Below, one piece after another: positions 186 through 64,000 of a stretch of 64,000 nt of DNA. The stretch's first letter is position 1; each line of letters opens with the position of its first letter. A program made the position numbers and the translations under genes. The notes below the pieces were generated by a model. The model searched no databases. It was not told the DNA's origin and saw only the letters and a list, made by a program, of their open reading frames with translations. Origin of the DNA: Candidatus Spyradenecus sp. Lineage in GTDB: Bacteria > Verrucomicrobiota > Verrucomicrobiia > Opitutales > UBA953. The stretch spans positions 32,001 through 96,000 of the forward strand of contig JAZSKX010000013.1 of the NCBI GenBank assembly GCA_045535075.1, written 5' to 3'.

Positions 186-1178
186 ATGCCCCCCGTTCTT
201 TCAGCTCAGGATTATATCGAAGGCGTTTTGCGCGGTGATCGCGTGATGCTTGCGCGCACGATTACGCTTATCGAAAGCGACGCACCGAAGCATCAGGCCT
301 TGGCGGATGAAGTGATTCAGGGATTGCTCCCGTACACGGGAAAGTCCGTTCGCGTCGGTATTACCGGCGTTCCCGGCGGCGGGAAAAGCACTTTCATCGA
401 GGCGTTCGGTTGTCATCTTTGCGATTTAGGAAAAAAAGTTGCTGTCTTAGCGATTGACCCGAGTAGCAGCATTTCCCGCGGGAGCATTCTCGGCGACAAG
501 ACGCGCATGGAAGAACTTACGCGACGGGAAAACGCCTTCATTCGCCCGTCTCCGTCCGGTTGTGCACTCGGCGGCGTTGCGCGCAAAACGCGGGAAAGCA
601 TTCTCGTTTGCGAGGCGTTCGGCTTCGATGTCGTTTTGGTGGAAACCGTCGGCGTCGGACAAAGCGAAACGACCGTGCGCTCGATGGTGGACTTCTTCCT
701 CGTCATTACAATCGCGGGAGCGGGAGACGAACTTCAGGGCATTAAAAAAGGCATTATGGAATTGGCGGATTCGCTTTTGGTTACAAAGGCGGACGGCGAC
801 AATCGTTCCCGCGCACTCGCGACGCGTGCCGAGCTTGAGCAGGTTTTGCATTTTATTACACCGGTTTCCCCGAAATGGCATCCGCGCGCTTTGGCATGTT
901 CCAGCCTCGAAGGCATCGGAATTGATGAAGTTTGGAAACTCATCTGCGAATTTGTTGCGAAATCTCGCGTTACGGGGCTGATTGACGAGCGCCGGCGGGA
1001 ACAGTCTCTGGAATGGCTTCAATGGCTTTTGGAGCAGGAACTGTGGCGGCGTTTCACTCAGAATCCGAACATTGTCGAAGCATGGTCGGAAACGCAGGAG
1101 CAGGTTTTATCCGGAAAGATTTCTCCGACGGCGGCGGCGCGTCGCCTCATACGAATTAATACTCAAACGAAAGAATAA
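186..1178 (+). CDS. meaB: Methylmalonyl-CoA mutase-associated GTPase MeaB/ArgK
   Basis: GITGVPGGGKST P-loop, AIDPSS, GDKTRM, ETVGVGQSE, GDELQGIKKG motifs; adjacent to mutase genes. Confidence 0.95.
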   Translation: MPPVLSAQDYIEGVLRGDRVMLARTITLIESDAPKHQALADEVIQGLLPYTGKSVRVGITGVPGGGKSTFIEAFGCHLCDLGKKVAVLAIDPSSSISRGSILGDKTRMEELTRRENAFIRPSPSGCALGGVARKTRESILVCEAFGFDVVLVETVGVGQSETTVRSMVDFFLVITIAGAGDELQGIKKGIMELADSLLVTKADGDNRSRALATRAELEQVLHFITPVSPKWHPRALACSSLEGIGIDEVWKLICEFVAKSRVTGLIDERRREQSLEWLQWLLEQELWRRFTQNPNIVEAWSETQEQVLSGKISPTAAARRLIRINTQTKE

Positions 1179-1181
1179 ACA

Positions 1182-1586
1182 ATGATTACCCAAATTGACC
1201 ACATCGGCATTGCCGTTACGAGCCTCGAAGCCACGATCCCGCATTATCGCGATGCACTCGGACTGGGCGAACCCCACATTGAAGAAGTCCCGACTCAAAA
1301 AGTACGCGTTGCGATGTTTGACGTCGGCGGTGTTCACATCGAACTTCTTGAACCGACTTCGCCGGACAGCCCGATCGCCAAGGCGATTGAAAAGAACGGC
1401 GGGCGCGGTTTGATTCATCATCTCGCATTTAAAACCGACGATGCGGCGGCGCAACTCACGCAGGCGAAAAATGCCGGTTGCGCACTCATCAACGAAACGC
1501 CCGTTCCCGGGGCACACAATACGCAAGTTGGTTTTCTGCATCCGAAATCCACGTTCGGAGTTTTGACCGAATTTTGCCAACACTAA
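1182..1586 (+). CDS. mce: Methylmalonyl-CoA epimerase
   Basis: VOC fold motifs IDHIGIAV, IELLEP, IHHLAF, FLHPKST.GVLTE; operon context. Confidence 0.95.
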   Translation: MITQIDHIGIAVTSLEATIPHYRDALGLGEPHIEEVPTQKVRVAMFDVGGVHIELLEPTSPDSPIAKAIEKNGGRGLIHHLAFKTDDAAAQLTQAKNAGCALINETPVPGAHNTQVGFLHPKSTFGVLTEFCQH

Positions 1587-1611
1587 TTACCGGAAACACA
1601 AACAGATACTA

Positions 1612-3522
1612 ATGGAAAGCAAACTTACTCTAGACGAGTTTTCGAAACCTTCCTACGAGGAATGGAAAGCCGCCGCCGTTGAAACGCTCAAGGGGGCGCC
1701 GTTTGAAAAGAAACTTTTTACAAAAACGCCGGAAGGAATTCTTGTTGAACCGATTTACGACGGCGTGGCGCCTGACGCGGCGATTCCTGGATTCTTCCCG
1801 TACACGCGCGGAATTTCCGCAACGCCGCAGGCTTGGCTCGTCGCGCAGGAGGCTTCCGCCGGTTGCGCCGGAAAGTATAACAAAGTCCTTCAGAGCGCAA
1901 TCGAACGCGGACAAAGCGCCGTCTCGCTTAAATTCAAAGGAACCGGCGTTTGCGGCGGGCTCAAGGAGCTTTCCGTCGATGCGGTTAAAACTGCGCTCGC
2001 GGATGTCGATTTTTCTTCGCTTGCTCTGTTTATCGACGGCGGGAACGAACCGGCGAAAGTTTATGATACGGTCGGCAAAGCCATCAAGGAACTCGGCGGG
2101 AACGACCGCGCAATTCCCGGAGCTGTCAGCATTGATCCGATTGGCGTTTTGTTGCTTAACGGCAAGTTGCCGAAAACTCTCGACGCGCTTTACGCCGAAA
2201 TGGCGGACGTGACGAAGCGCTCGCAATCCGTCTTCCGTACGGTCGGCGTTAATGCTGCGATTTATGCCAATGCGGGTGCAACCGCCGTTCAGGAACTCGG
2301 CTATGCGATCGCAACCGCCGTCGAATACCTCCGCGCTCTTACGAATGCCGGATTCGACATCGACACGGCGGCGCAAAAAATCCGTTTTACGCTCGCAATG
2401 GGCGGAGATTTCTTCATGTCGCTTGCCAAGGTTCGCGCTCTGCGCACGCTTTGGGCAAATATCGTCAAAGCCTGCGGCGGGAACGACGAATCCTGCAAAG
2501 CACACATCCATGCGACGACGACGCGCTGGAACAAGTCTTCGCTTGATATTTACGTTAATATGCTTCGCTCGACGACGGAAGCGACGGCTGCCGTTCTCGC
2601 GAATGTCGAAAGCCTCACGATTGAGCCGTTCGACGCGGCGGCGCGCAAGCCCGACGATTTCTCGCGTCGCATTGCGCAGAATCTCCACATCATTCTTCGC
2701 GACGAATGTCAATTTGACAAAGTGCTTGATCCGGCGGGCGGTTCGCCTTACGTGGAATCGCTTACAACGCAACTTGCGGAAAAGGCCTATGCGCTTTTCC
2801 AAGATGTCGAAAAAGCCGGCGGCATGGCAGCCGCGGTTCTCGCGGGAACGCCTCAGGCAGCGGTTGCGGCGGCAAATGCCGAAAAAATGAAAATGCTCGA
2901 ACAACGTCGCATGACGCTTGTCGGCGTGAATGTTTACGCAAATCCGCTTGAAAAACCGCTCGAAAAACGCGAATGCTGCTGCTCGAAAAAATCCGGGGAA
3001 TCTGCTGAAAAACATAGTTGCTGTTGCCACGGGAACGACGTTCCCGCCGCAGTTTCGGCGCCGAAGTTGGAGCAGGTCCGTGCTGCAGAGCCGTTTGAAA
3101 AAATGCGCAATGCCGTTTGGAGTGCTGCGAAGCGTCCGCAGATTTTCCTCGCTAACATGGGCCCGGTTCGCCAGCACAAGGCACGTGCGGATTTTTCCAC
3201 AGGCTTCTTCGATGTCGGCGGTTTTGAAATTCTCACGAATTCCGGCTTCAAGGATGTTCCCGCCGCCGCAGAAGCGGCAGTGGCGTCAGGCGCGGGAATC
3301 GTTGTTATCTGCTCGACCGATGATACTTATCCGGAAATCGTTCCCGCGCTGACACAGGCGATCAAAGCCGCTAAGCCGGAAACGCAGGTGGTTCTTGCCG
3401 GCTATCCGACGGATTTTGTCGAAGCGTTCAAAGCTGCCGGAGTCGATGAGTTCATTCACATCAAGGCGAATTGCTACGCCGTCAACAAAGCGCTTCTCGC
3501 CAAAGTCGGGATTAACGCCTAA
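1612..3522 (+). CDS. mutA: Methylmalonyl-CoA mutase small (beta, non-catalytic) subunit
   Basis: [39 protein letters not shown] motifs; no DxHxxG B12 ligand motif. Confidence 0.9.
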
Positions 3523-3548
3523 CACACAAAACAGGAAAGTTAATTATC

Positions 3549-5738: not shown

Positions 5739-5774
5739 GCGTTCCCGTGAAATTTCTCGCGGGAACGCTTTTTT
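5739..5774 (+). terminator. Intrinsic terminator built from an inverted pair of the 9-mer
   Basis: GCGTTCCCGTGA-aatttc-TCGCGGGAACGC followed by TTTTTT, 22 nt after the mutB stop. Confidence 0.85.
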
Positions 5775-9988: not shown

Positions 9989-10035
9989 GCTTAAGAAAAA
10001 CCGGATGAAGCGGAATTGTTTCGCTTCTCTTCTAA

Positions 10036-10080
10036 ATAAAAAGCGTTCCCGCGATTCTCTTTCACGGGAACGCTTTTTAT
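10036..10080. terminator. Bidirectional terminator built from an inverted pair of the 9-mer
   Basis: ATAAAAAGCGTTCCCGCGA...TCACGGGAACGCTTTTTAT downstream of trpB. Confidence 0.85.
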
Positions 10081-13147: not shown

Positions 13148-13813
13148 ATGAAAGCTTTATCCCCTGTTTCAAAACGGAAGGCATTTACACTCGTCGAAGT
13201 CTTGGTCGTTGTCGGCGTTATTGCGATTCTTGCCGCAGTTACCGTCGGGCTTTTGGGTCCGGTGGAAAACGCAATCAGAACATCGAATGCGAAAGCGCAA
13301 TGCGACAAGATTTCCATGGCGGTGGAGGACTTTAAATCGACTTATGGCGAGTATCCGATGCTTGAAGATTCGGGCGATCAGGAAGATTGGGAAAAATTGC
13401 TCATGGATTCGATGCGCGGCGACAAAATCCTCGTACGAAAGGGCGGGAAAATGCAGCTCATCGATTTTGATGACGGGAAATCGGATGCCGAACGCCGCCC
13501 GTTTTTGGAACTCAGTGAATTTTCGTTTGATAGTGAAGATGTCGATTCCGCCACTAAAATTCTCGACCCGTGGGAAAACCCGTGGCAATACCGCTACAAT
13601 GTAATTTCAGGCGGCAAACTCGGGAAGAATTGGTTCGGTCCGACGTTCATTCTAATCTCCGCCGGACCGGAATACGAAGATCCCGTGGGAACCGATGACT
13701 TCTTTACCGGCGATTTGGAAGAAGAAGGGGTGCCGGATTTGGACCCGGACGGAGACGACTACTACTTTGCCGACATCCGCGCCGACAATATTACGAACTT
13801 TGGTGCGAAATAA
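13148..13813 (+). CDS. Prepilin-type N-terminal cleavage/methylation protein (GspG-like pseudopilin)
   Basis: KRKAF/TLVEVLVVVGVIAILAAV class III signal; DPWENPWQY and LISAGP GspG-like motifs. Confidence 0.85.
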   Translation: MKALSPVSKRKAFTLVEVLVVVGVIAILAAVTVGLLGPVENAIRTSNAKAQCDKISMAVEDFKSTYGEYPMLEDSGDQEDWEKLLMDSMRGDKILVRKGGKMQLIDFDDGKSDAERRPFLELSEFSFDSEDVDSATKILDPWENPWQYRYNVISGGKLGKNWFGPTFILISAGPEYEDPVGTDDFFTGDLEEEGVPDLDPDGDDYYFADIRADNITNFGAK

Positions 13814-18043: not shown

Positions 18044-19501
18044 ATGAAATCAGATGCTTCAAAAGCTTTTCCCGTAGCAACGGAAGCGTTGAAAAATGCG
18101 CTTGGGGGCGAGGCGGTTCGAACGGACGCCGAAGCGCTTTTTGCCGCGTCGTTCGACAATACGAAACTTTCGTTTTTGCCGGAAGCCGTCGTGTTTCCGC
18201 GCGACGAAAATGATATTGCGACGACACTAAAACTTGCCTATGCGCACGGCGTTCCCGTGACGGTGCGCGGCGCGGGAAGCGGAACGACAGGCGCAGCGGC
18301 GCCGGTTTGCGGCGGCTGGGTTGTTTCACTTGCGCATTGGACGAAGTGTGAGATTGATGCCGATTCTGCCTTGGCGCTTGTCGAGCCGGGTGTTGTTACG
18401 CAGGCGATTTCCGACGCGGCGCGGGAACACGGGCTTTTTTATCCGCCGGATCCCGCAAGCGTAAAACATTGCACAATCGGCGGAAACATCGCCACGAATG
18501 CCGGCGGCCTGCGGGCGGCAAAATACGGAGTAACGCGCGATTACGTCGTCGCACTCGAAGGATTTTTACCGACGGGCGAAAAAGTGCGTTGGGGCGGCAA
18601 GGTCAAAAAATTTGTCAGCGGCTACAATCTGCGCGATTTATGGGTCGGAGCGGAAGGCACGCTCGGCATTATCACGCGGGCCGTTTTGCGCTTGGAGCCG
18701 ATTCCCGAGGCTCGCCATACGTTTTTGTGTATGTTTGCGGGCGATGCGAGCGGCTTGCGCGCGTCGCAGGCGCTTCTGCGGGAACGCGTTAATCCGTCGG
18801 TTTTGGAATTTATGGACGCGCTTTCCGTGCGTTGCGCCTTAGAAGAAAAGGGCGAGACGATTTCGGGAATTGAGTGCGGCGATTCGGTTTTACTGGTGGA
18901 GATTGACGGTTCCCGTGCCGAGCTTGAGCCTGCAATCGAAAAAGTTCGCGCTTGGGCAAAAAAATATGCGCGTGTATTTCGCGAAACTTCCGATTCCGCC
19001 GAAGCCGAAAAACTTTGGGAAATCCGCCGCGCCTGCTCGCCGGCGATGTTCCGTTTGGCAAATTCAAAATTAAACGAAGACATCGTTGTTCCGCTTGAAA
19101 ATTACATCCCGCTTTTTGACGCAATGCGCGACATAACGCGTGAAACCGGTTTGCAAACGCCGATTTTCGGGCATGCCGCCGACGGCAATTTTCACGTTCA
19201 CATTATGTACAATCGCGAAAATCCGCGGGAACGCGATTTAGCGCAGAAAGCAATTTTTCGGGTAATGAAATCCGTTGTCGATTTAGGCGGCGTCATTACG
19301 GGAGAGCACGGAATCGGCTTGGCAAAATCGCCGTTTTTGGCGCTTCAGCACACGCCGGCGGAAATCGAGGCGATGCGCGCCGTCAAAAAAGCGCTCGACC
19401 CGAAAAACATTCTCGGACGCGGAAAAATATTTGAAGCGTTCAATGTTTGGAACTGCGAACCGGTTTCCGTCAAATTACCTTGGGATCGGAAAAAAGCTTA
19501 A
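18044..19501 (+). CDS. FAD-linked oxidase, GlcD / D-lactate dehydrogenase family
   Basis: RGAGSG, YPPDPAS, TIGGNIATNAGG, GHAADGNFH, TGEHGIG. Confidence 0.88.
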   Translation: MKSDASKAFPVATEALKNALGGEAVRTDAEALFAASFDNTKLSFLPEAVVFPRDENDIATTLKLAYAHGVPVTVRGAGSGTTGAAAPVCGGWVVSLAHWTKCEIDADSALALVEPGVVTQAISDAAREHGLFYPPDPASVKHCTIGGNIATNAGGLRAAKYGVTRDYVVALEGFLPTGEKVRWGGKVKKFVSGYNLRDLWVGAEGTLGIITRAVLRLEPIPEARHTFLCMFAGDASGLRASQALLRERVNPSVLEFMDALSVRCALEEKGETISGIECGDSVLLVEIDGSRAELEPAIEKVRAWAKKYARVFRETSDSAEAEKLWEIRRACSPAMFRLANSKLNEDIVVPLENYIPLFDAMRDITRETGLQTPIFGHAADGNFHVHIMYNRENPRERDLAQKAIFRVMKSVVDLGGVITGEHGIGLAKSPFLALQHTPAEIEAMRAVKKALDPKNILGRGKIFEAFNVWNCEPVSVKLPWDRKKA

Positions 19502-19532
19502 TTTCGCAAGGGCAAAAGGAAGTCGGAAATCA

Positions 19533-20297
19533 ATGAATCCATTTAGAAATTTCGCACTTCCTTTTCTCTTTTATTGGTTTCGCGGCGTACTTGATGTCGT
19601 GTTCCCGCGTTCGTGCGTCATTACGGGCAAGGCGCTGGAAGAAGGAGAGTTAAGCTACATTTGCGAAGAAGGAGCCAAACTTCTCTATTGCATCCACGCG
19701 GCAAGCGCATGCCCGCGATGCGGCGCTTTTCTCGGCGAAAATCCGGCAACGAAGAACATTTGTCCGAACTGCATCAATCGCGGGAACGAAGACTTGCAAA
19801 TTGGGCGCTCCCGCAGCGTCGTCTGCTTAGACAGCTTTTCGCGTCCGATTGTTTTTTCCCTGAAATATTGGAAACTTCCGTCGATCGCCCGCGATATGGC
19901 TGTTCTGGCAACGCGCTCCCGCGGATTTGTTGAATATTTGCAAGACGCGATTCTTGTGCCGGTACCGCTTTGCAAAAAGCGTCTGCGTTCCCGCGGATAC
20001 AACCAGAGCTTGTGCTTGGCTAAAGCGCTTGCAGCCGTTTCCTCCGGAACTTGCGTGGCGGATGTTCTTGAACGCACACGCGACACGGGAACGCAGACGC
20101 ATTTGGATGCGGAAGCACGCAGGGAAAATGTTCGCGGAGCATTTGTCGCTAAGGGGAACTTTACGGCGAATCCTAAAAAGCGTTATATTCTGATCGACGA
20201 TGTTTTTACAACGGGATCGACGCTTTCCGAGTGCGCCGTTGCGTTACGACGTCGCGGAGCCGTCAGAGTCGACGCCGCGACGTTTGCTCACGGATAG
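19533..20297 (+). CDS. comF: ComF family competence protein (zinc ribbon + phosphoribosyltransferase-like)
   Basis: CPRCG...CPNC zinc ribbon, LVPVPL...RGYNQS, LIDDVFTTGSTL. Confidence 0.88.
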   Translation: MNPFRNFALPFLFYWFRGVLDVVFPRSCVITGKALEEGELSYICEEGAKLLYCIHAASACPRCGAFLGENPATKNICPNCINRGNEDLQIGRSRSVVCLDSFSRPIVFSLKYWKLPSIARDMAVLATRSRGFVEYLQDAILVPVPLCKKRLRSRGYNQSLCLAKALAAVSSGTCVADVLERTRDTGTQTHLDAEARRENVRGAFVAKGNFTANPKKRYILIDDVFTTGSTLSECAVALRRRGAVRVDAATFAHG

Positions 20298-29939: not shown

Positions 29940-30035
29940 AGTGAAAAACTCCGATTAGCGTTCGTTCCCGCCGGAAATCCGAACGGGAACGCGTGAAGCT
30001 TTCTTTAGTCTCTAATCTTTAATCCCGGGCACTTT

Positions 30036-35000: not shown

Positions 35001-36104
35001 TTATTTTGCGACGGGCTTCGCGTCGGCCGCGGGAGCGTCCGTTTGGGGAAGATTGAGGCCTGCCTTTTTCGCTTCTTGCTGGGCAATGATCGTTTCAATC
35101 TGCTTTACCCAACGATCCAATTCCGTAGCGCGCTTGGTGCCGGCAACGCAATCGCGGGCTGCTTTAAGGTAGTTAAGAGCCTCTGGAAGCTTTCCCTGCA
35201 TTGCATAGCCGTCGCTGATATACTTGTTCAATTCGCACTTCGTGATCGGAAGCAATTCGTCATTCTTCAGCAATTCAAGTGCTTCGGCACGCGCTTCGTC
35301 CGGGTTTCTTTTCCCGCGATGCTTGTCGGCAAATTGCATAAGCATTTCACGCTGTTCGACGCCGAGTCGTGCTTCACGCTCTTTCGCTTTGAAGCCGAAG
35401 CGATCGTTTGTGTCCTCCGCAATAATTTGGGCAACCAGCTCTTTCTGTAGCGCCTGAAATTCTGTCGGAAGCGCATTTAACGCATTTACAAGAGCCTCCA
35501 ACCGCTCTGCTCCCGTTTTTTGCTGAGCCGCCTTGACAGCCGCCGAGAATTCTCCGCAGAGCAAATACGCCGTTTCCAACTTTTCCAAATATTCGGGAAT
35601 CGTTTTCGTGACGCCGACAATCTTGGCGTAAGCCGCGCCGTTTTTATCTAAAAGCAACACGGAGGGAAATCCTCTAACGCCGTAAAAATTCATGATTCCT
35701 TCGCGTTCCCGCATAACGTCTGCCGGAATTTTTCCCGGTGTGCGCGGAAAATCCAATTCGACAAATATGATATTTCGGTCGCCGACATACTTAGAAAATT
35801 CCGGCTTCGAGAGAATATTCGAGCGCAAAAGCTTACACGGCGGGCACCAGTCCGACCCGGTAAATTCGACTAAAATCAGACGATCTTCTTTTTTCGCCAA
35901 ATCAATCGCTTCGCGCAAATCCGTAATCGCAGTATCAAGCACACTTGCGGACGTCGTTGCCGGCGCATCTTGGAGCGTTTCTTGAACAACGGGAGTTTCG
36001 GCAACAGCAACCGATTCCGTCGCGGGTTTTACATTTTCATCACTGCATGCCGTAAAAAGAGACGCGGCAAGCATTCCGCCAAGGATATAGAACGATTTTC
36101 TCAT
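35001..36104 (-). CDS. Thioredoxin-family lipoprotein with helical C-terminal domain
   Basis: Lipobox-like LFTA-C; FTGSDWCPPC, GFPS cis-Pro motif. Confidence 0.82.
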   Translation of the reverse strand: MRKSFYILGGMLAASLFTACSDENVKPATESVAVAETPVVQETLQDAPATTSASVLDTAITDLREAIDLAKKEDRLILVEFTGSDWCPPCKLLRSNILSKPEFSKYVGDRNIIFVELDFPRTPGKIPADVMREREGIMNFYGVRGFPSVLLLDKNGAAYAKIVGVTKTIPEYLEKLETAYLLCGEFSAAVKAAQQKTGAERLEALVNALNALPTEFQALQKELVAQIIAEDTNDRFGFKAKEREARLGVEQREMLMQFADKHRGKRNPDEARAEALELLKNDELLPITKCELNKYISDGYAMQGKLPEALNYLKAARDCVAGTKRATELDRWVKQIETIIAQQEAKKAGLNLPQTDAPAADAKPVAK

Positions 36105-36230
36105 AGGTCGTGCAAGAATACTCGGCTTTTCGCGCCGCGTCTATCTTTATTCGGGATTTAAGAAAAATTTAATTTTTATTGACAAAACGAAATCAAAAAG
36201 ATTCTATTTCCACTTAAGTTTTCGGCTTAC

Positions 36231-36318
<88 letters not shown>

Positions 36319-36323
36319 CTTTC

Positions 36324-36353
36324 AGAGGCGACCGCGCGGCCGCCTCTTTTTTT
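36324..36353 (+). terminator. Intrinsic terminator of tRNA-Ser
   Basis: AGAGGCG...CGCCTCT hairpin followed by a T-run. Confidence 0.85.
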
Positions 36354-36818
36354 GTGAAAATGAAGAATCTGACTGCAAGAACCTTGCTTTGTGGGCTTAT
36401 TGTGTTGTCATCGTTTCCTTAAAGTGAAACTTATTTCGCTTCTCCGCAAGGGATTTGAACTTTTATCGAATCTTGTTTTCGGTTCTTTACGGTTCGAAAA
36501 TTATGAAAATCGCGAAAAACATGTATTTTTCCCCGAAGCGGAAACGTCAGCCTTTCGTTTACACGAACACGCGCACGCTTTTCATGCACTACAAAGGTGA
36601 GTAGCTTCAAAATGCTACCTGTCGTAATATTCGCAATTTTTAATCATAAAGCTCACTTTTCGCACGCAGAAACGCACTACGCCTCTTCAAGGGTTAAAAT
36701 CTTTTATTGATGAAAACGCGCTTAAATGTTGCCGGATTTTTGACTTTGGGGTAGAGTCGTTGGTACAACGAGCGACGGCGGGAACAAGCCCGTTTTTACT
36801 CGGAATACAACTGATATT

Positions 36819-38174
36819 ATGAGCAATAACACACACGAACAAGGCACTACCCGAACACCGATTTACGTTTCAATGTTCCCGCACGGCGGGCGCACTGTCA
36901 TTGGAATTTCCGATAAAAACGGACGACGCATACGCGCCGTTTTTCGAGAAACATTCGCACGAATGCTTGCGGATGAAGGGCGCATGGAGCTTTGGACGGC
37001 AATCCCGCACAGCGATCGCATTCATCGTGTCGAATCTTTTCCGCTTGATGAGGCGGGAAAACCCGTCGATGTATTCATTGAAAAATATCCGGACATTCCG
37101 CGTCCCGACGTTCCGGCAATTTTCGATGAGTGTATCGGCAAAGCGCCGGAGGGCGGCTTCGTCAGGCTTAAAGATGATTACTGCGAAATAGCATATTACA
37201 CACCTACGAAAAGTCGCAGTCGCCTTTTGGAAATTCCTGCCGGTGAAGATCGTTTTCGGCGCCTTTGGGAACTTCCGGAAGAAGCGTGGGAAAACGCCTT
37301 GCCGCCCCTGTCAATTTCTCGGACACAAGCGCTATGGTCTGACGCATCGCGCACACTCTTTTTTTCTAAGCCGAAGAAACTTGGTATCTACTACATTCCC
37401 GGCTTTGCATCCGGAGTCGGGTCTTCAACCGGAAAAGCGCTCATCGAACGTTTCCCGCACGCCCGTATTTTGAGTTACGACAGTGCGGGAACACTTTCCG
37501 ACAACCTAAAATCTCTAGTCGGACAACTCGACACAAGCGATACCGCCCGTATTTTTGTCGGGTCTTCGCTCGGTGCCTACTACGCCGCACATTTATGCGT
37601 AAAGACCAAACGTGTTGACGACAGGCGATTGATTTTGATTAACCCGGCAATCAATCCCGGCGAAACATTGAAGCAATTTATCGGGAAAAACACTTCTTTA
37701 GACACGGGAACGAGCTTTGAACTTCCCGCAACTTCCGTCGAATCCTACGAAGTGATGCCGCGTCCCGGAGTCAAAACCGTCGTCCTCATAAGCAAAAATG
37801 ATACCCTACTTGACCCGCAAAAAATGCATTCTTTTTTTGAACCCTTCGCCGACATTATTTCGGTTGAAGGCGGGCATCGTCTTGAGGACAAAGAAATGCT
37901 TTTTGAGGCGACAGAAAATCTTTCCGGTTCTAAAGCAAGTATTTCCCTGTATCGCCGGGCGCTCAGTCAAACAGAACATGAAGTGCTGTCCCTCCGGTTT
38001 CGTCTCAAAGACGAAGTTTTTCGTTCCCGCAAGGAACTTGCGAAAATTTTCGGCGAGACCCCCGAACGTGTCGCCGAAGTCGAACAGCGCGCTATGGAGA
38101 AAATCTGTGGCTCACCGCTTTACAGGTACATAAAAAAGCACAAGGCCATCGGCTCCGACAATCCGTCGCATTAA
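36819..38174 (+). CDS. Multidomain protein: unknown N-terminal domain + YqiA/YcfP-like alpha/beta hydrolase + sigma70 region-4-like HTH
   Basis: YIPGFASG, FVGSSLGAYYA, LINPA, D..LD, GGHR; C-terminal LSQTEHEVLSLRF...ELAKIFGETPERVAEVEQRAMEKI. Confidence 0.75.
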   Translation: MSNNTHEQGTTRTPIYVSMFPHGGRTVIGISDKNGRRIRAVFRETFARMLADEGRMELWTAIPHSDRIHRVESFPLDEAGKPVDVFIEKYPDIPRPDVPAIFDECIGKAPEGGFVRLKDDYCEIAYYTPTKSRSRLLEIPAGEDRFRRLWELPEEAWENALPPLSISRTQALWSDASRTLFFSKPKKLGIYYIPGFASGVGSSTGKALIERFPHARILSYDSAGTLSDNLKSLVGQLDTSDTARIFVGSSLGAYYAAHLCVKTKRVDDRRLILINPAINPGETLKQFIGKNTSLDTGTSFELPATSVESYEVMPRPGVKTVVLISKNDTLLDPQKMHSFFEPFADIISVEGGHRLEDKEMLFEATENLSGSKASISLYRRALSQTEHEVLSLRFRLKDEVFRSRKELAKIFGETPERVAEVEQRAMEKICGSPLYRYIKKHKAIGSDNPSH

Positions 38175-48507: not shown

Positions 48508-48551
48508 AAAAAGAAGCGTTCCCGCGAATAGCTCACGGGAACGCTTCTTTT
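48508..48551 (-). terminator. Bidirectional terminator built from an inverted pair of the 9-mer
   Basis: AAAAGAAGCGTTCCCGCGA-atagc-TCACGGGAACGCTTCTTTT between convergent mnmA and pfp. Confidence 0.88.
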
Positions 48552-49913: not shown

Positions 49914-49950
49914 AAAAGCGTTCCCGTAAAAAATTCACGGGAACGCTCTT
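49914..49950 (-). terminator. Intrinsic terminator of eno built from motif variants
   Basis: Minus strand GCGTTCCCGTGA-atttt-TTACGGGAACGC-TTTTTG. Confidence 0.82.
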
Positions 49951-52488: not shown

Positions 52489-55400
52489 ATGAGCTCTGAC
52501 CTGAATTTTAATCTTGCCGCAAATGCGAAAAACTACAGCGACGTTCCGCCTTCTGAGCCGGAAACCGTCAACGAAAGTAGCGTTCCCGCAGAAGAAATTC
52601 CGGACTTTGTTCATCTGCACGTCCACTCCCAGTATTCCATGCTCGACGGAGCAACGCGCATCGCCAGTAGCGTTGACAAAAAAAGCAAAACCCTGCTTGC
52701 AAAAGGACTCGTTCAGAAAGCGAAAGAATGCGGCATGCGTGCAGTCGCGTTGACCGACCACGGGAACATGTTCGGCACAAAGCTTTTTTATGACACCTGC
52801 CGCGCCGAAAAAATCAAACCCATCATCGGTTGCGAAGTTTACGTCGCCCGACGCACGCGTTTCGACAAAGGGAAAAACGTTCCCGCAGATGCCGATCCGA
52901 AAATCGACCGCTCCGGCGACCACCTGATTTTGCTCGCGAAAAATCTCACCGGGTACAAAAACCTCGTTAAAATCGTTTCCGCCGGCTGGATTGACGGGTT
53001 TTATCACCGTCCGCGTATCGACAAAGAAATTCTTGAGAAATTTAGCGAAGGACTCATCGTTTCGAGCGCTTGCATCGCAGGAGAAATTCCGAAGGCGATT
53101 TTAAAAAACGATTGGGGGAAAGCCGAAGCCGCCGCAAAATGGTATAAAAACATTTTCGGTGAAGATTTTTACCTCGAAATTCAGCGTCATCCGAACAACG
53201 GCGAACACAGCACGGAGGAAACGCGCGACGTTTACCTGCGGGAAGTCCGCGCCGCACAAGGACTTTTCGAACTCGCAAAAAAACTGAAAATCAAGGTTAT
53301 CGCGACAAATGACGTTCACTTCCTCGATGAAGCCGATGCAGACTCGCATGAAATTTTACTTTGCTTAAGTACGGGAAAAAAGCTTTCCGACGAAAACCGG
53401 ATGCGCTACACGCGCCAGGAATGGTTTAAAAGCAAAGAAGAAATGTACCGGTTGTTCAAAGACTGCCCGGAAGTCTTGAGTAATACGACGGAAATTGCGG
53501 ACAAGGTCGAAGAATACGACTTAAACTCGCCGCCGATTATGCCGTTCTTTCCCATTCCTGCAGAGTTCGGCTCGGAGGAAGAATACGCAAAACGCTTCAG
53601 TGAAGCCGACCTGATCGCACTTTGGGGCGAAGACCGCTTCAAAAAACTCGGCGGCTACGAGAAAGTCCTTCGCATCAAGTTCGAATGCGATTATTTGGAG
53701 CATCTCACGCTTGAAGGTGCCGCAAAGCGATGGCCGGACGGCATTCCGGAGGACGTGCGGGAACGCATTGATTTTGAACTGAACACGATTCGGACGATGG
53801 GCTTCCCGGGGTACTTTCTCATCGTTCAAGACTTTATCGCCGCCGCAAGAAAACTCGGAGTCATCGTCGGCCCCGGGCGCGGGAGCGCCGCCGGATGCGT
53901 TGTCGCGTACTGCCTGGGAATCACAGGAATCGACCCGACAAAATACGACTTGCTTTTTGAACGCTTCCTCAATCCGGATCGCATTTCGATGCCCGATATC
54001 GATATCGACTTCGACGACGCGGGGCGGCAAAGCGTACTCGAATGGGTCACAAAAAAATACGGCGCGGATCACGTTTCGCACATCGTTACGTTTGGTGTCA
54101 TGGCTCCCAAAAGTGCAATCAAAGACGTTGCCCGCGTCATCGAATTGCCCTTGGCGGAATCAAACAATCTGGCAAAGCTCGTTCCCGCGACGCCCAAAAT
54201 TACGATGTTTAAGGCGATGCAGGAAGTTCCCGAATTAAAGGAAAAACTTTCTTCGACAGATCCCGTCGTCGCGCGAACCATGCAACTCGCCGAAAAACTC
54301 GACGGCACCGTGCGCCAAAGCGGGGTCCATGCATGCGGCATTCTCATTAGCCGCGATCCGCTCACGGAAACGATTCCCGTTATGCCGACTGCAGGAGAAA
54401 GCCTGCTCACAACGCAATATGACGGACATTTTGTCGAGCCGATCGGTTTGATTAAAATGGACTTCCTCGGCTTGCGCACGCTGACGATCATCAAATCTGC
54501 GCTTGCCAATATCCGCGAATCTTCGGGCAAAGAAATCGACATCGATAAAATTCCGATGGACGATACCAAGACCTTCGAGCTTTTTTCCGCGGGAAGAACA
54601 ACGGCGCTGTTCCAGTTTGAATCAGCCGGCATGAAAAAGCACCTCATGGCGCTAAAGCCGAATCGCTTTGAAGACCTCGTAGCGATGAACGCGCTCTACC
54701 GCCCCGGACCCATGGCATACATTCCGCAATTCATCAAACGCAAACACGGAGAAGAGCCGATTGTTTACGATCATCCTCTGATGGAATCGTATTTAAAAGA
54801 TACTTACGGAATTACGGTTTATCAGGAACAGGTTATGCTTCAATCCCGTGCGCTCGGGCAATTTACGCGCGGGGAATCCGACACGCTTCGCAAAGCCATG
54901 GGGAAAAAGATGGCGGATGTCATGGCAAAGCTCAAAGAAAAGTTCATCAACGGCTGCCTCACGAACCCGAAATTCATGGAAGCCGATGTTTGCGGGAACG
55001 ACGAAAAAAAAGCAACGGCGCTTTGCAACAAAATCTGGGGCGACTGGGAAGCATTCGCGCAATACGCGTTTAACAAATCGCACTCGGTTTGCTACGCCTA
55101 CATTGCCTATCAAACCAGCTGGCTCAAAGCGCATTATCCCGTGGAATTCATGGCATCGGTTCTCGATTCCGAAACCGGAAATCCGGAAAAAATGCTTTTC
55201 TTCATCGCAGAATGCGAAAGCATGGGGATTCGCGTACTCGGCCCCGACATCAATTCTTCAAATATCGGATTCGCTCCCGACCCGAAAAATAACGCCATCC
55301 GATTCGGCTTCGGCGGGCTGAAGGGTCTCGGGGAAAAAGTCGCGGAAGAAATCATTCGGGAACGCAAAACAAACGGACGCTACAAAAGCTTTGTGGATTT

Positions 55401-56493
55401 TATGCAACGCATGGCACGCGTTCGCGTTGTTTCCGTAGACGAAAATAACGTCCGACGGGAACAAAAACTCGTCCTCGGTCGCGGTCTGCAGGCACTTATC
55501 GTCACGGGAGCGTTTGACGGTTGCGACATTTTTGAGGATCGCCGCCATCTGCTCGATTCCGCAGACGCAGTCCGCAATTCCTTTTCCAAAGAGGAAGAGG
55601 ATTCAAGTCAACTTGGGCTTTTTGACATGCTCGGCGACAACGTCGGAGACGAACTCAATCGGGATCTCATTACGCGCACGGGAACGCCGATGTCCGAAGC
55701 CGAAAAACTCCGCCACGAACGCGAGTTGCTCGGGCTCTATATTTCCGGGCATCCGCTCAACGCGTTTGTTAAACTCGATCGCGCGCTCACAACATTCAAA
55801 GGAGCATTTGAGGATTGTAAGCTTTCCCGCTACGAGAAACACAACGTCCGCCTCTGCGGAATGTGTTCCGAAATCAAAGTTAAGTCCACTAAAGACGGAC
55901 GAAAATTCATGACATTAATGCTCGAAACGCATTCCGATGCGTACGATATTTTCTGTTTCAGCGATGTCGTCAATCTCAAGATTCTAAACGCGGGAACGAA
56001 ACTGCCGGACGGCACAATCGTCAAAAGCGGCGCAATGCTTGAAAACGGAACCGTTCTCGAAGACGGCTCCATCATTGCCGTCGACGGAGAACTACGCTTT
56101 GCCAAACGCAAAAAAGACGACGTGGAAATCTCCGAATGGCGTTTTAATGCTACGCGTATTTCTTCGCTCAAAGAACAACTTCCCGTTCTCCTGAAAAAAA
56201 TTACATTCATTCTCGACGGGAACGCTCCGGAGGAAATGCACCGCTTCCTTAAGGAAAAACTCGTCCCGCATATTTCCTCAAACAGCGGCGGAACCGCCAT
56301 CGCACTTGCCGTTGCCGTCGACGGCGACATTAACAATTTGCTTGAAGCAGATCTCGGCGAGGCGATGACGGCATTTTTCCCGGCTCCGGCGTTTCGCGAG
56401 CTGGCGGAAGATCCCGCCGTCGTCGGATACGAAATTGTTCCCGTCGAGCCCTACAAGCGTCCTTCGCGTTTTCCTTCCCGCAGTTACAACTAG
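52489..56493 (+). CDS. dnaE: DNA polymerase III alpha subunit
   Basis: FVHLHVHSQYSMLDG PHP domain, GPGRGSAAG, PDIDIDFD, KMDFLGL, YAFNKSHS. Confidence 0.97.
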   Translation: MSSDLNFNLAANAKNYSDVPPSEPETVNESSVPAEEIPDFVHLHVHSQYSMLDGATRIASSVDKKSKTLLAKGLVQKAKECGMRAVALTDHGNMFGTKLFYDTCRAEKIKPIIGCEVYVARRTRFDKGKNVPADADPKIDRSGDHLILLAKNLTGYKNLVKIVSAGWIDGFYHRPRIDKEILEKFSEGLIVSSACIAGEIPKAILKNDWGKAEAAAKWYKNIFGEDFYLEIQRHPNNGEHSTEETRDVYLREVRAAQGLFELAKKLKIKVIATNDVHFLDEADADSHEILLCLSTGKKLSDENRMRYTRQEWFKSKEEMYRLFKDCPEVLSNTTEIADKVEEYDLNSPPIMPFFPIPAEFGSEEEYAKRFSEADLIALWGEDRFKKLGGYEKVLRIKFECDYLEHLTLEGAAKRWPDGIPEDVRERIDFELNTIRTMGFPGYFLIVQDFIAAARKLGVIVGPGRGSAAGCVVAYCLGITGIDPTKYDLLFERFLNPDRISMPDIDIDFDDAGRQSVLEWVTKKYGADHVSHIVTFGVMAPKSAIKDVARVIELPLAESNNLAKLVPATPKITMFKAMQEVPELKEKLSSTDPVVARTMQLAEKLDGTVRQSGVHACGILISRDPLTETIPVMPTAGESLLTTQYDGHFVEPIGLIKMDFLGLRTLTIIKSALANIRESSGKEIDIDKIPMDDTKTFELFSAGRTTALFQFESAGMKKHLMALKPNRFEDLVAMNALYRPGPMAYIPQFIKRKHGEEPIVYDHPLMESYLKDTYGITVYQEQVMLQSRALGQFTRGESDTLRKAMGKKMADVMAKLKEKFINGCLTNPKFMEADVCGNDEKKATALCNKIWGDWEAFAQYAFNKSHSVCYAYIAYQTSWLKAHYPVEFMASVLDSETGNPEKMLFFIAECESMGIRVLGPDINSSNIGFAPDPKNNAIRFGFGGLKGLGEKVAEEIIRERKTNGRYKSFVDFMQRMARVRVVSVDENNVRREQKLVLGRGLQALIVTGAFDGCDIFEDRRHLLDSADAVRNSFSKEEEDSSQLGLFDMLGDNVGDELNRDLITRTGTPMSEAEKLRHERELLGLYISGHPLNAFVKLDRALTTFKGAFEDCKLSRYEKHNVRLCGMCSEIKVKSTKDGRKFMTLMLETHSDAYDIFCFSDVVNLKILNAGTKLPDGTIVKSGAMLENGTVLEDGSIIAVDGELRFAKRKKDDVEISEWRFNATRISSLKEQLPVLLKKITFILDGNAPEEMHRFLKEKLVPHISSNSGGTAIALAVAVDGDINNLLEADLGEAMTAFFPAPAFRELAEDPAVVGYEIVPVEPYKRPSRFPSRSYN

Positions 56494-56495: not shown

Positions 56496-57005
56496 TCAAA
56501 TGAGCAGGCTTTTCTCTAAACGCAACAACTCTGCTTTACGCGAAGGCCCGCCGGCGTAGCCGCAAAGTTTTCCGTTTTTTCCTACAACGCGGTGGCAGGG
56601 AATGATGAGCGCAATCGGATTGTGCCCGATGGCGCCGCCGACGGCTCGCGCTGAAGGTTTCGCGTCAGATTCGCCCTGCCCGAGTGTTCCCGCGAGCGCC
56701 CCGTAAGTTTGCGTTTCCCCGTAAGGAATTTCGCGAAGCTTTTCCCAAACGCGCAAACGGAATTCCGTACCGAAAGGCGCGAGCGGGATTGCCGCCGCCG
56801 AAGGATTTTCCCCGAGAAAATAAGCATCCAGCCAACGGAACGTTTCTTTAAAAATCGGCAAATTCTCCCGCAAAATCCAAGGGCGCTCAGACGCAATTTC
56901 CGCAACTTGCCTGCCGCCTTCAAACCATAGCCCGGTAAGCGCATTTTCGCTTGCCGACAAAGTTATTTCTCCCAAAGGCGAACGATAGCGGGCGAGATAA
57001 ATCAT
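56496..57005 (-). CDS. ogt: Methylated-DNA--protein-cysteine methyltransferase
   Basis: GTEFRLRVW, IPYGET.TYG, ARAVG, IPCHRVV. Confidence 0.93.
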   Translation of the reverse strand: MIYLARYRSPLGEITLSASENALTGLWFEGGRQVAEIASERPWILRENLPIFKETFRWLDAYFLGENPSAAAIPLAPFGTEFRLRVWEKLREIPYGETQTYGALAGTLGQGESDAKPSARAVGGAIGHNPIALIIPCHRVVGKNGKLCGYAGGPSRKAELLRLEKSLLI

Positions 57006-58399
57006 TGCGCTTCAACGACTTTTCGCGCACGCGTTCCCGCAACGTCCGCGGGAACGGCAGAATAGTTTTTAAGAAAAATGAGAATAAAGACCACGTTGAT
57101 TAGCCACGAAAGCGTGTCGGAAATCGGCAAACTGAGCCAAACGCCGCGCGTTCCCCAGAAAAGAGGAAGCACCAGCAAAAGCGGAATCAACAAAAGCATT
57201 TGGCGTGTCATCGACAGGAAAATCGCCAATTTTGCCCGCCCGATCGCCTGAAAGAAATTTCCGATGACGATTTGCATTCCGATAACGGGAAGCGCATAGC
57301 ATGAGACGCGAAGCGCTTCGTCTGCAGCGGCAAGCAAGGCGGCATCTTGCGTAAACATTTTCGAAATAAATTGCGGAAAAAACACGCAAATCGCCCAACC
57401 GATCGTCGTAACCACCGTTCCCGCGAGAATTCCGTAGCGCAAAGTCAGGCGCACGCGCTCGGTTTGTCCGGCTCCGTGATTAAAGCCGGCTATCGGCTGC
57501 ATGCCTTGGGTAATTCCGTTGACAATCATCGCAATCAGCATGACCACGCGACACAAAATTCCGTAAGCCGCCACGCCTGTATCGCCGGAATATTTGAGCA
57601 ATTCATGATTCACGACAATGACGACAAGGCACCCGCAAACATTCATCATGCACGGCGCCAATCCGATGGCGACGATGCTTTTCGTTACACCGGCGCGCAA
57701 ACGAAAAATTCCCGAACGAAAATGCAAGGTGTGTTTCGGGTTGAATAAATGCGCAAGCACCCATCCCAGTCCGAAGACTTGCGCGATCGCCGTCGCTCCC
57801 GCGGCGCCGCGCATCTCCCAGCCGAAGCAGTAAATGAAAATCGGCGCAAGCACGACATTTACGATTACCGAGATCAGCAATGAATACATTGCTTTTTTCG
57901 GATAACCCGAAGCGCGCATAATGTGGTTGAGATTAAAAAAGCAAAACGTAATCGGTAAAGTCAGCAAAATGATTTGCATAAACTCGTACGCGGGAACGAA
58001 CGTCTCCCCGCTTGCGCCGAAAAGCCGCAAAATCGGATCGAGAAAAAAACAGGTTCCCCAGCCGAATCCGATTCCGGAAATAAGACTTAACCCGAGCACG
58101 TTTCCCAAGACGCTGTAAGCCTCGTCCGTTTTTTTCTCTCCGAGGCGAATCGAACAAACCGACGCCCCGCCGATGCCGACCAAGGTGCCGAGCGCAAAGG
58201 TCAAATTCATCACGGGAAATGCAATCGCAAGCGCCGCAAGCGCTGCCGCGCCGATCCATTGCCCGATGAAAATGCTGTCAACAATATTATAAAGCGAAAA
58301 AACAATCATTCCCGCAATTGCCGGAAGCGAATATTTGACCAGCAACGGCAGAATCGGCGCATTTTCCAGCGCAGCCATTTCGTTTTCCTTGGGTCCCAT
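57002..58399 (-). CDS. MATE family efflux transporter (MepA-like)
   Basis: Multiple TM segments; LYNIVDSIFIG, RASG, QGMQPIAGFNHGA. Confidence 0.92.
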   Translation of the reverse strand: MGPKENEMAALENAPILPLLVKYSLPAIAGMIVFSLYNIVDSIFIGQWIGAAALAALAIAFPVMNLTFALGTLVGIGGASVCSIRLGEKKTDEAYSVLGNVLGLSLISGIGFGWGTCFFLDPILRLFGASGETFVPAYEFMQIILLTLPITFCFFNLNHIMRASGYPKKAMYSLLISVIVNVVLAPIFIYCFGWEMRGAAGATAIAQVFGLGWVLAHLFNPKHTLHFRSGIFRLRAGVTKSIVAIGLAPCMMNVCGCLVVIVVNHELLKYSGDTGVAAYGILCRVVMLIAMIVNGITQGMQPIAGFNHGAGQTERVRLTLRYGILAGTVVTTIGWAICVFFPQFISKMFTQDAALLAAADEALRVSCYALPVIGMQIVIGNFFQAIGRAKLAIFLSMTRQMLLLIPLLLVLPLFWGTRGVWLSLPISDTLSWLINVVFILIFLKNYSAVPADVAGTRARKVVEAQ

Positions 58400-58532: not shown

Positions 58533-58566
58533 AAAAAACGTTCCCGCGCATTGATCGCGGGAACGT
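58533..58566 (-). terminator. Intrinsic terminator of rho built from two perfect 9-mers
   Basis: AAAAAACGTTCCCGCG-cattgat-CGCGGGAACGT; the A-run gives a U-tail on the minus strand. Confidence 0.82.
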
Positions 58567-60839: not shown

Positions 60840-60840
60840 G

Positions 60841-62956: not shown

Positions 62957-62960
62957 TAAA

Positions 62961-63000
62961 TTAACGAAAATTTAACAATTCCCTTATCTTTCGATAACAT
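62961..63000 (+). promoter_or_regulatory. Putative Pho-box-like direct repeat overlapping a sigma70 promoter
   Basis: TTAACG (62961) and TTAACA (62972) with an 11-bp period; TTAACA-17 nt-TAACAT upstream of the response regulator. Confidence 0.5.
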
Positions 63001-63027
63001 TTCCGGCGCACAATCAAGTAATCGCAT

Positions 63028-63714
63028 ATGGCAACAAAAATTCTGGTAATTGAAGACGACGAAGCGATTCGCGACGTGATTTGTTTTACACTCGAAAATA
63101 ACGGCTACGAAAACGTAATTGCCGCCGGCGACGGCGAATCCGGTTTGCAAATTGCCCGACGGGAACAGCCGTCGCTTGTGCTTTTAGATCTGATGTTGCC
63201 GCAACTGGACGGGCTGAGTGTTTGCCGAGAGCTTAAGCGCGATGAAGCAACGCACAACATTCCCGTGATCATGCTCACGGCAAAAAGCGAGGAAAGCGAC
63301 ATCGTCCTCGGGCTCGAAATGGGCGCCAACGACTATATCACAAAACCTTTTAGCAACAAAGTCCTTGTCGCACGCGTTCGCGCACAACTCCGAAACGGCT
63401 TTGATAAAGAACACAGCGGAGAAATCCGCTACGATGTGCTACTGATGAACACGCTTGAACACACCGCCTCGCTTGACGGCAAGCCCCTCGATCTCACATT
63501 CACCGAATACGGGATTTTGAAATTGCTTGCTAAACGACCGGGACGCGTTTTCACGCGAGACCAAATCGTGACGAAAGTTAAAGGCGATGACTATCCCGTA
63601 ACCGATCGAGCCATCGACGTGCAGATCGTCAATCTTCGACGCAAACTCGGCGCGTGGGGCACGCACATCGAAACGGTGCGCGGAGTCGGTTATCGGATGA
63701 AAGCCAAATTCTAA
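63028..63714 (+). CDS. OmpR/PhoB family response regulator
   Basis: IEDD, LLDLMLP, MLTAK, DYITKPF; winged helix LTFTEY...RAIDVQI..LRRKL...TVRGVGY. Confidence 0.93.
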   Translation: MATKILVIEDDEAIRDVICFTLENNGYENVIAAGDGESGLQIARREQPSLVLLDLMLPQLDGLSVCRELKRDEATHNIPVIMLTAKSEESDIVLGLEMGANDYITKPFSNKVLVARVRAQLRNGFDKEHSGEIRYDVLLMNTLEHTASLDGKPLDLTFTEYGILKLLAKRPGRVFTRDQIVTKVKGDDYPVTDRAIDVQIVNLRRKLGAWGTHIETVRGVGYRMKAKF

Positions 63715-63727
63715 GCGAACCCGCCAC

Positions 63728-64000
63728 ATGAAGTCTCAGGACAAAACCCTTTTTGCGTTCCCGCTCATTCTCATTTTTTTGGTCATAATTTCGGCGGGAG
63801 CGCTCTTTGTTTTCACTAAAAAATTTGAAGAATCCTATGTCGCGGCAGAAAAGCGCGGAGTCATGCTTGAGGCGCAATTCGTTGCCTCGCTGATTTCTCC
63901 GATGCTGGTTGAAGGCGATGTTGAGCGCGTTGCCGAGTTTTGCGAAGGAATTTCGGAAAAATCCCGGCGCATCACGCTGGTGGATTCCGCGGGAACGGTT
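63728..64000 (+). CDS. N-terminus of a PhoR-like sensor histidine kinase (partial)
   Basis: ATG 13 nt after the regulator stop; MKSQDKTLFAFPLILIFLVIISAGALFVF TM segment ... RRITLVDSAGTV, open to the window end. Confidence 0.7.
   Translation, partial: MKSQDKTLFAFPLILIFLVIISAGALFVFTKKFEESYVAAEKRGVMLEAQFVASLISPMLVEGDVERVAEFCEGISEKSRRITLVDSAGTV

Follow-up and report, generated by a model that had tools for sequence, protein, structure and literature searches.

A hyper-abundant nine-base word resembling DNA uptake sequences in a genus of uncultured gut Verrucomicrobiota

In the account of a recent preprint, uptake sequences are described in two bacterial families only, both belonging to the Proteobacteria (bioRxiv 10.1101/2025.10.24.684340). 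In the Neisseriaceae, the DNA uptake sequence (DUS), GCCGTCTGAA with its dialects, is a non-palindromic word of 9-10 bases that is read by the minor pilin ComP and is present in thousands of copies, equally on both strands. For the uptake signal sequence (USS) of the Pasteurellaceae, AAGTGCGGT / ACAAGCGGT, the minor pilin ComN/PpdA was predicted as the receptor in a 2025 paper (PMC12616744). Here we analyzed a 64-kb stretch of DNA from Candidatus Spyradenecus sp. (GenBank assembly GCA_045535075.1, contig JAZSKX010000013.1, positions 32,001 to 96,000), hereafter the window, in which a first-pass annotation made from the letters had noticed a very frequent short word and suggested that it might be a new uptake sequence. 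The word, GCGGGAACG, shares with the DUS the non-palindromic form, the thousands of copies and the equal use of both strands, while it is unrelated to the DUS in sequence and occurs in another phylum. Based on the analyses below, we consider it probable, with some reserve, that GCGGGAACG, in its fuller form Y-Y-R-CGGGAACG-C, is a DUS-like self-DNA tag of the genus to which this genome belongs.

The window corresponds to C2:32001-96000 of an assembly of 18 contigs, 1.95 Mb and 52% GC. Copies were counted as exact matches to GCGGGAACG and to its reverse complement CGTTCCCGC, with CGGGAACG taken as the eight-base core. On both strands of the window between positions 804 and 63997, we counted exactly 124 copies of the nine-base word and 177 copies of the core; in 100 dinucleotide-preserving shuffles, the nine-base word averaged 2.02 copies and never exceeded 6. 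The first-pass annotation had put the number at about 124, and all nine of its example positions (804, 2039, 5881, 12166, 16441, 28052, 43400, 52581 and 63989) are among the copies; its strand balance of 67:57 was likewise reproduced, 67 copies being on the plus strand and 57 on the minus strand. Genes were called with our own open reading frame (ORF) and codon-model script (1363 genes, 84% of the genome), which missed some real genes (such as those at window positions 12974-13813, 19431-20297 and 44379-45239), so that the intergenic counts here and below are slightly inflated. By these calls, 107 of the 124 copies lie within genes (59 sense and 48 antisense) and 17 are intergenic, in line with the earlier statement that the word is present in coding and intergenic DNA alike. 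The additional single-mismatch copies with a CGGGAAC core were also found: 161 one-mismatch words are present where 15.9 are expected by chance, and 83 of them retain CGGGAAC. As for the flanks, a pyrimidine (C or T) directly precedes the word in 98 of 123 copies, and C directly follows it in 69 of 123. The pyrimidine-rich 5' flank that had been proposed was thus recovered, but not its 'tttt' form, as long runs of T and A come mainly from paired copies at terminators.

The word is not confined to the window. The 1.95-Mb genome holds 3244 copies (1581 forward and 1663 reverse; 1.66 per kb), compared with 34 copies of a reversed control word, and the density is 1.0-2.3 per kb on each contig longer than 10 kb. 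The core CGGGAACG is the most frequent 8-mer of the genome with 5159 copies. The genome-wide logo reads Y-Y-R-CGGGAACG-C and its flanks become uninformative after about 3 nt in each direction, which argues for a short word that is not part of a longer repeat. In an analysis of one-mismatch variants, the ten-base form GCGGGAACGC was present in 1614 perfect copies; its positions 2-6 (CGGGA) are nearly intolerant of substitution, with no variant exceeding 63 copies, while position 1 accepts A (592 copies) and position 10 is free. A strong core of 5-7 bases between weaker flanks is a feature of the USS as well, although single copies here, in contrast with the USS, have no extended AT-tract flank, the T-runs belonging to terminator pairs. 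The spacing of copies along the genome is exponential (median 409, with 410 expected). A small mobile repeat of the repetitive extragenic palindrome or miniature inverted-repeat transposable element type was considered and ruled out, since conservation ends at about 3 nt to either side, 80% of the copies are genic and orthologous sites differ by substitutions rather than insertions. Polarity was gauged by GC skew in 86 bins of 20 kb, the contigs being unordered and the origin and terminus not mapped. Bins of positive skew contain 816 forward and 654 reverse copies and bins of negative skew 537 and 769, a split of about 57:43. By our own estimate, base skew alone would produce about this split in a word containing five G and two C, and part of the measured skew comes from the word itself. 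As such, the replichore polarization that had been named as an argument against an uptake sequence was not seen beyond base skew.

To compare the abundance of the word with that expected from the genes themselves, we used three null models for coding DNA. The coding sequences contain 2605 copies, compared with 45 when the order of codons was shuffled, 234 when synonymous codons were shuffled within genes, and 525 ± 20 (maximum 586) under a dicodon shuffle that keeps the protein, the codon usage and the dinucleotides. In intergenic DNA, 638 copies were counted and 19.7 are expected from a third-order Markov model trained on the same intergenic DNA. The enrichment therefore holds against backgrounds that preserve codons and dipeptides, under which the first-pass annotation had allowed that it might disappear. 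The density is 1.60 per kb in coding and 2.01 per kb in intergenic DNA, and about 80% of the copies are genic, compared with 65% listed as lying in ORFs for the USS of H. influenzae, which is likewise mostly coding, and 34.5% listed for the DUS of N. meningitidis, from which the word differs in this respect (PMC2817400). All six reading frames are used with a strong bias (154-958 copies per frame), the most common being GCG-GGA-ACG, encoding Ala-Gly-Thr, with 958 copies and xxC-GTT-CCC-GCx, encoding Val-Pro-Ala, with 667. The proteome is reshaped by the word: the tripeptides VPA, AGT, RER and RSR exceed the expectation from amino-acid composition by 5.0-, 4.9-, 3.8- and 2.8-fold and take ranks 1, 2, 3 and 8 of 3636 tripeptides by observed/expected ratio, whereas their permutations are close to 1. 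Biased use of all frames and inflated tripeptides are again shared with the USS, and Findlay and Redfield described a similar tripeptide inflation, about a doubling, for both USS and DUS (PMC2817400).

We then compared the word among related genomes. The placement of the window in a Verrucomicrobiota-like lineage, as had been suggested, proved right (Verrucomicrobiota, Opitutia); its enolase is 96% identical to that of Candidatus Spyradosoma sp., the nearest named relative, followed by metagenome-assembled genomes of Opitutaceae/Opitutae. The genome holding the window is denoted as G000 and the other genomes of its GTDB genus as G001-G018. All 18 of the latter are enriched in the word, with 340-5581 copies compared with 37-87 of the reversed control word. 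Enrichment was not found in the genomes examined outside the genus: the 102 genomes of the four sister genera of the family reach at most 176 copies, at or below the control, and 12 further families of the order likewise gave no enrichment; nor was any seen in 299 genomes from 146 other genera elsewhere in the phylum, the highest count being 326 copies in 3.8 Mb. The genus is deep, with DnaE identities down to 65%, and the GC content of its sampled loci extends from 0.45 (G008/G009) to 0.66 (G018/G004), the samples being small (14-89 kb). This is a large compositional spread for one GTDB genus. In each high-density sample, including those with GC contents of 0.45, 0.54 and 0.66, CGGGAACG is the top 8-mer. 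The first-pass annotation had suggested surveying relatives for the word or its dialects, and none of the latter was seen in the samples: the low-density G001 keeps the same top word and no replacement word appeared, in contrast with the DUS, which has dialects. In the sample of G014 (76-86 kb), the k-mers are dominated by a tandem repeat based on CACCACCAACCC, which is probably a repetitive gene.

Within the genus, the number of copies differs among lineages. Compared with 3244 in G000, there are 5084 in G018 and 3613 in G004, but only 732-760 in the sister species G001, G002 and G013, and 340 in G014, which stands on its own long branch. In a quick DnaE tree, G000 is sister to G001/G002/G013 (94% amino-acid identity), the next relatives by identity being G018 (84%) and G004 (83%); the rows of G004 and G005 used a wrong ORF, which makes their placement in the tree meaningless, and their identities to G000 are 83% and 65%, respectively. 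To follow single sites, we used the dnaE gene of the window (52489..56493, plus strand), which holds seven exact copies in G000, nine in G018 and one in each of the three low-density sister species. When the dnaE codons are aligned, the differences among sites are point substitutions at matching positions; in three cases, G000 and G018 have an exact site where the sister clade has a variant with one mismatch. Turnover by point mutation is a property of the USS as well. Over 89 kb aligned between G000 and G001 (78.6% identity), there are 164 sites in G000 and 35 in G001; the 26 that they have in common make up 74% of the sites of G001 and 16% of those of G000. These alignments would be read most simply as an ancestral abundance of the word, to which G000 continues to add copies while the sister clade is losing them.

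Copies of the word also occur as close inverted pairs with a preferred configuration. Kingsford et al. (2007) described that DUS and USS pairs form terminators, that strand totals are equal and that the preferred configuration places the A- and T-tails (PMC1852404). In G000, 203 pairs are arranged as CGTTCCCG-loop-CGGGAACG and 49 in the opposite order, a ratio of about 4:1, compared with 226 to 5 in N. meningitidis and 50 to 25 in H. influenzae in Table 5 of that paper (PMC1852404). The spacing of the 203 pairs peaks at 20 nt from start to start, 156 of them are intergenic, and a typical pair, AAAAA-GCGTTCCCGC-loop-GCGGGAACGC-TTTTT, is flanked by runs of A and T. From their sequences, the word pairs are predicted to act as terminator stems. 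The window contains six intergenic pairs in gaps beside gene ends, five of which were folded (-22 to -29 kcal/mol, z -4.5 to -8.2), and a seventh inside a gene. On the plus strand, a CGTTCCCG-loop-CGGGAACG pair with a T-run at 5740..5767 (-26.4 kcal/mol, z -7.1) is a predicted terminator after the methylmalonyl-CoA mutase gene (ending at 5717), and a pair with an A-run and a T-run at 10044..10072 (-26.0 kcal/mol, z -7.0) after a PALP-family gene (ending at 9988). The pair at 29963..29991, on the minus strand, lies in the gap between frr (30036-30593, minus strand) and the next gene, and is listed here by position. The pair at 48517..48543 (20 base pairs, -28.6 kcal/mol, z -8.1), between the convergent genes mnmA (ending at 48263, plus strand) and pfk (ending at 48569, minus strand), is the strongest terminator-like site in 44-64 kb, and it looks like a bidirectional terminator because an A-run and a T-run flank it. 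Two further pairs on the minus strand follow the enolase gene (49986-51314, minus strand) at 49919..49945 (-29.4 kcal/mol, z -8.2) and rho (58590-60839, minus strand) at 58539..58565 (-22.4 kcal/mol, z -4.5); the latter is the second-strongest terminator-like site in 44-64 kb, so that both of the strongest are word pairs. The seventh pair, at 57032..57056, falls within the MatE gene (57002-58399, minus strand), at its 3' end.

The word is unevenly absent from some parts of the genome. Gaps of at least 3.5 kb between cores number 12, where 0.5 are expected, and the low-density stretches are of two kinds, namely acquired DNA and the most constrained operons. The former comprises two Mu-like prophages and low-GC islands with restriction-modification genes or a 1609-aa helicase, and the latter rpoBC and the cluster of ribosomal-protein genes, secY, rpoA and fusA. 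The core of prophage 1 has 0.59 cores per kb compared with 2.3-2.7 per kb in its flanks, and the restriction-modification and helicase islands have 0.2-0.8 cores per kb. Scarcity in acquired DNA is also described for the DUS (PMC2817400), with which the word likewise shares its restriction to one clade. Both Mu-like prophages or elements are outside the window, at C16:~184000-222000 and C8:~22000-35000 of G000, and carry Mu Gam, a MuB-like ATPase, terminase, Mu portal and gp27 genes. In both, copies of the word are few but more numerous than chance would give. In one of them, a 487-aa protein with an ADP-ribosyltransferase exoenzyme domain is encoded directly after the portal gene. Just upstream of the window (C2:17030-17635 and C2:18462-22107), we observed a frame of 1020 aa that weakly matches Eco57I and N6_Mtase, beside a 3.6-kb, motif-free stretch of 41% GC, and frames of about 900-1080 aa akin to it are present in seven other genomes of the genus. 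From its sequence, this locus is possibly a type IIG restriction-modification island. In the window itself, the longest stretch free of the nine-base word is 2.3 kb (35713..38021) and lies within the part of lowest GC content (36001-40000, GC 0.473), which encodes a UPF0227-domain protein and two AAA-type ATPases and may be a small acquired island. A scan of viral contigs for the terminator pair returned two contigs, neither of which is motif-dense; phages of the genus may be absent from the collection.

We also searched for the machinery of DNA uptake in G000, whose completeness is 99.45%. The genome has ComEC, DprA, a ComF-family gene and seven pilin-like genes, four of which form one operon beside recJ. 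One cluster adjoining RecD2 encodes two PilB-like ATPases, one PilT-like ATPase and PilC, and another encodes PilM, an Amuc_1100-family protein and a secretin. In the latter (C12:~8460-13610), the PilM-like gene is followed by a weak match to the Amuc_1100-family pilus-like proteins (NF038287, 31 bits, below the cut-off) and then by a 984-aa secretin bearing TPR repeats; Akkermansia has a comparable pilus-like gene cluster. As regards secretion genes in general, we found a single secretin and three full T2SSE ATPases in G000, and in each of G001, G002, G013, G014 and G018 a second secretin (frames of about 770-880 aa) and a fourth ATPase; either G000 lost a type II secretion system, or it falls in an assembly gap. 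The ComF-family gene and the prepilin-type gene that had been pointed out in the window are both real. The former (ComFC/GntX-like; 19431..20297, plus strand) matches TIGR00201 at 3e-22 with 79.5 bits (cut-off 233) and PRK11595 GntX at 2.4e-23, and each of the 19 genomes of the genus has an intact copy; the true start of the window gene is probably later, because relatives align only from about residue 45-50 of the ORF. The latter (13181..13813, plus strand) encodes a pilin-like protein of 210 aa from the GFxxxE signal motif on, with N_methyl, TIGR02532 and GspG-like matches. All 19 genomes of the genus have it, and since full-length homologues (31-40% identity) extend through the five genera of the family, it was not singled out as a genus-specific receptor; of the seven pilin-like genes, this comparison among genera covered the window pilin. 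Two apparent disruptions of this gene were discarded, since the TGA in G014 is the natural stop and the split copy of G002 lies at two contig ends. The four-gene pilin operon was located in 18 genomes and is full length in 17 of the 17 complete loci; the locus of G017 is cut at a contig end and that of G004 was not located. The search for uptake genes that the first-pass annotation had recommended thus recovered ComEC, DprA, a secretin and pilus genes, but neither a canonical ComEA nor a ComP-like receptor.

From the sequence signatures and the machinery, most of which is present, we infer DNA uptake, a preference for the word and a protein that reads it. In the mechanism that we propose by analogy with the DUS and USS, double-stranded DNA bearing the word would be bound by a receptor located at the surface or in the periplasm (probably a pilin-like component of the type IV pilus/secretin apparatus), PilT-driven retraction would draw such DNA through the secretin, and ComEC, ComF and DprA would pass one strand inward to RecA. 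Fragments bearing the word would be taken up and recombined more often, so that point mutations creating it would spread, and this molecular drive would continue until balanced by mutation and by selection on proteins. The proposed drive would account for most of what was observed, namely the thousands of copies on both strands and in six frames with a distorted proteome, the co-option of paired copies as terminator stems, the scarcity of the word in prophages, restriction-modification islands and the most constrained genes, and the same word across species of 45-66% GC.

Several observations weigh against this interpretation. The copy number, up to 5581 in about 1.7 Mb, is unusual for the class: it is above the per-genome counts listed for USS and DUS (1471, 765 and 1892), and the 3244-5581 copies per genome here are more than the 1471 listed for H. 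influenzae (PMC2817400). In G001/G002/G013 and in G014, the two lineages whose copy number is 4- to 10-fold lower, all competence genes checked are retained: ComEC, DprA, the secretin, the ATPases and ComF are intact, and so are the pilin of the window and the operon of four pilin genes. The loss of an uptake or recognition gene that one would expect in these lineages was thus not found among the genes checked. A canonical ComEA was not found in G000, where the best HHH_3 and TIGR00426 matches are in an 805-aa Tex-like frame and below the TIGR00426 cut-off, and ComEC is short (570 aa), with only the Competence domain detected. Nor are the competence genes distinctive, as those found here also match in most of 14 control genomes and such genes are widespread in bacteria not known as transformable. 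No receptor comparable to the ComP of the DUS was singled out among the seven pilin-like genes, the window pilin being family-wide and the four-gene operon being intact in the low-density species. Prophage 1, though poor in the word, still has about 15 times the number of cores expected by chance (0.59 compared with about 0.04 per kb), and for this reason an intracellular process is as ready an explanation as uptake. Furthermore, no report of natural transformation in Verrucomicrobiota was found in literature searches, which were not exhaustive. As for the uptake system first proposed from the letters, its sequence-level predictions agreed with the counts, the receptor and a canonical ComEA were not found, and the uptake bias itself is drawn by analogy; on these grounds the uptake reading is only partly supported, and an intracellular motif-binding protein remains its rival.

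Such a protein would be genus-specific and might be nucleoid-associated, a recombination or repair protein, or a discriminator of self from non-self, the word being its site and owing its high density to selection or to a bias in repair or gene conversion within the cell, with no role in uptake. We regard this explanation as possible but doubtful. The pattern, which is genus-wide and independent of GC content, would fit it, as would the outcome of our searches, in which neither ComEA nor a receptor was found, and the retention of every competence gene checked in the low-density lineages. The partial enrichment of the Mu-like prophages is consistent with a process acting on resident DNA, and the cyanobacterial highly iterated palindrome 1 (HIP1), GCGATCGC, shows that hyper-abundant words exist with no known link to uptake. 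On the other hand, no candidate protein was found for this role in our analysis. Known nucleoid and partition sites number tens to hundreds rather than thousands inside genes in all frames, and selection on binding sites would not obviously yield the tripeptide distortion or an exponential, unpatterned spacing, whereas the signatures match the precedent of DUS and USS point for point. It appears very unlikely that the word has a more specific intracellular role as a polar signal of the Chi type, read by RecBCD/AddAB, or of the KOPS type, read by FtsK. Chi and KOPS (FtsK-orienting polar sequences) are over-represented self-words too, and RecC (PF04257, 199 bits) and a 1107-aa PDDEXK_1 protein resembling the RecB nuclease suggest that a RecBCD-type enzyme probably exists in G000; depletion in prophages and islands is also what a self-marker would show. 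However, Chi and KOPS are strongly co-oriented with replication and far sparser, while the word is split 57:43 with respect to GC skew, as base skew alone gives, and one site per 0.4-0.6 kb in both orientations carries no directional information. The Chi reading is thus disfavored by the pattern, not by gene content.

HIP1 also bears on a second alternative of the first-pass annotation, a methylation-linked motif. On this reading, a methyltransferase or restriction-modification system that recognizes the word would drive or protect its accumulation, as proposed for HIP1. HIP1 is an 8-mer with about one copy per kb in genes and spacers, is conserved across its clade and is linked to methyltransferases. 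The word resembles it in being dense in genes and spacers and conserved in a clade, but HIP1 is palindromic while GCGGGAACG differs from its own reverse complement. Several restriction-modification systems are present in the genomes, and the Eco57I-like frame of about 1000 aa is found in G000 (C2:17213) and in the seven other genomes of the genus mentioned above. Nevertheless, none of the four DNA methyltransferase families searched, which did not include the D12 Dam class, is common to all high-density genomes or tracks the word across the 19 genomes: PF01555 is absent from G000, G004 and G006, PF02384 from G018, G008, G012 and G003, and PF00145 from nine of the 19, while PF07669 is under the cut-off in G008, G012, G009, G006 and G003. 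Among these families, a single Eco57I-like frame is all that G018 (5084 copies) has, and G008 (3499 copies) lacks both Eco57I and N6_Mtase matches, whereas the low-density G001 and G014 carry such enzymes. Judging from these profiles, a conserved methyltransferase that reads it is unlikely, and we give the methylation-linked explanation, which is disfavored, very little weight. It is just as improbable that the word is a by-product, either a favored terminator stem or the outcome of a lineage-specific mutational bias, with no dedicated reader. About 200 pairs do appear to serve as terminator stems, and word pairs make up both of the top-ranking terminator-like sites in 44-64 kb, but only 964 of 5158 cores have a neighbor within 45 nt and 3550 are single copies in genes. 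A mutational bias over 8-9 specific bases that is kept across GC contents of 45-66% and is absent from four sister genera would be without precedent, and the near intolerance of positions 2-6 to substitution suggests a specific reader.

Returning to the uptake reading, full-text literature searches, which were not exhaustive, returned no prior description of the word or of uptake sequences in Verrucomicrobia, and the exact-string matches to the word were to primers or otherwise unrelated. We rate as an even prospect that sequence-specific uptake arose here for a third time, independently, in uncultured gut Verrucomicrobiota, with an unrelated word at the highest density so far for such a signal (up to about 3 per kb) and with two lineages resembling natural 'drive-off' cases that would point to a receptor or regulator. 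If confirmed by uptake experiments, the word would be a third, independent case beside the self-DNA tags of Neisseria and Haemophilus, and self-biased transformation would be a recurrent outcome of evolution rather than a proteobacterial oddity. It would also imply natural competence in a gut Verrucomicrobiota lineage without genetic tools, whose members might be rendered transformable by placing the word on donor DNA. A comparison between sister species, some with about 3200 copies and some with about 750, would be a way towards the receptor and towards measuring the drive, a question posed by the USS as well. With the uptake bias confirmed, the word would further serve as a sensitive marker for binning contigs of the genus and for spotting foreign DNA.

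Two other genes of the window were noted in passing. The Rho protein (58590-60839) has 749 aa and its RNA-binding domain begins only at residue 381, which leaves a long N-terminal extension. In addition, a bacterial alpha-2-macroglobulin of 1997 aa is encoded at 20300-26293.

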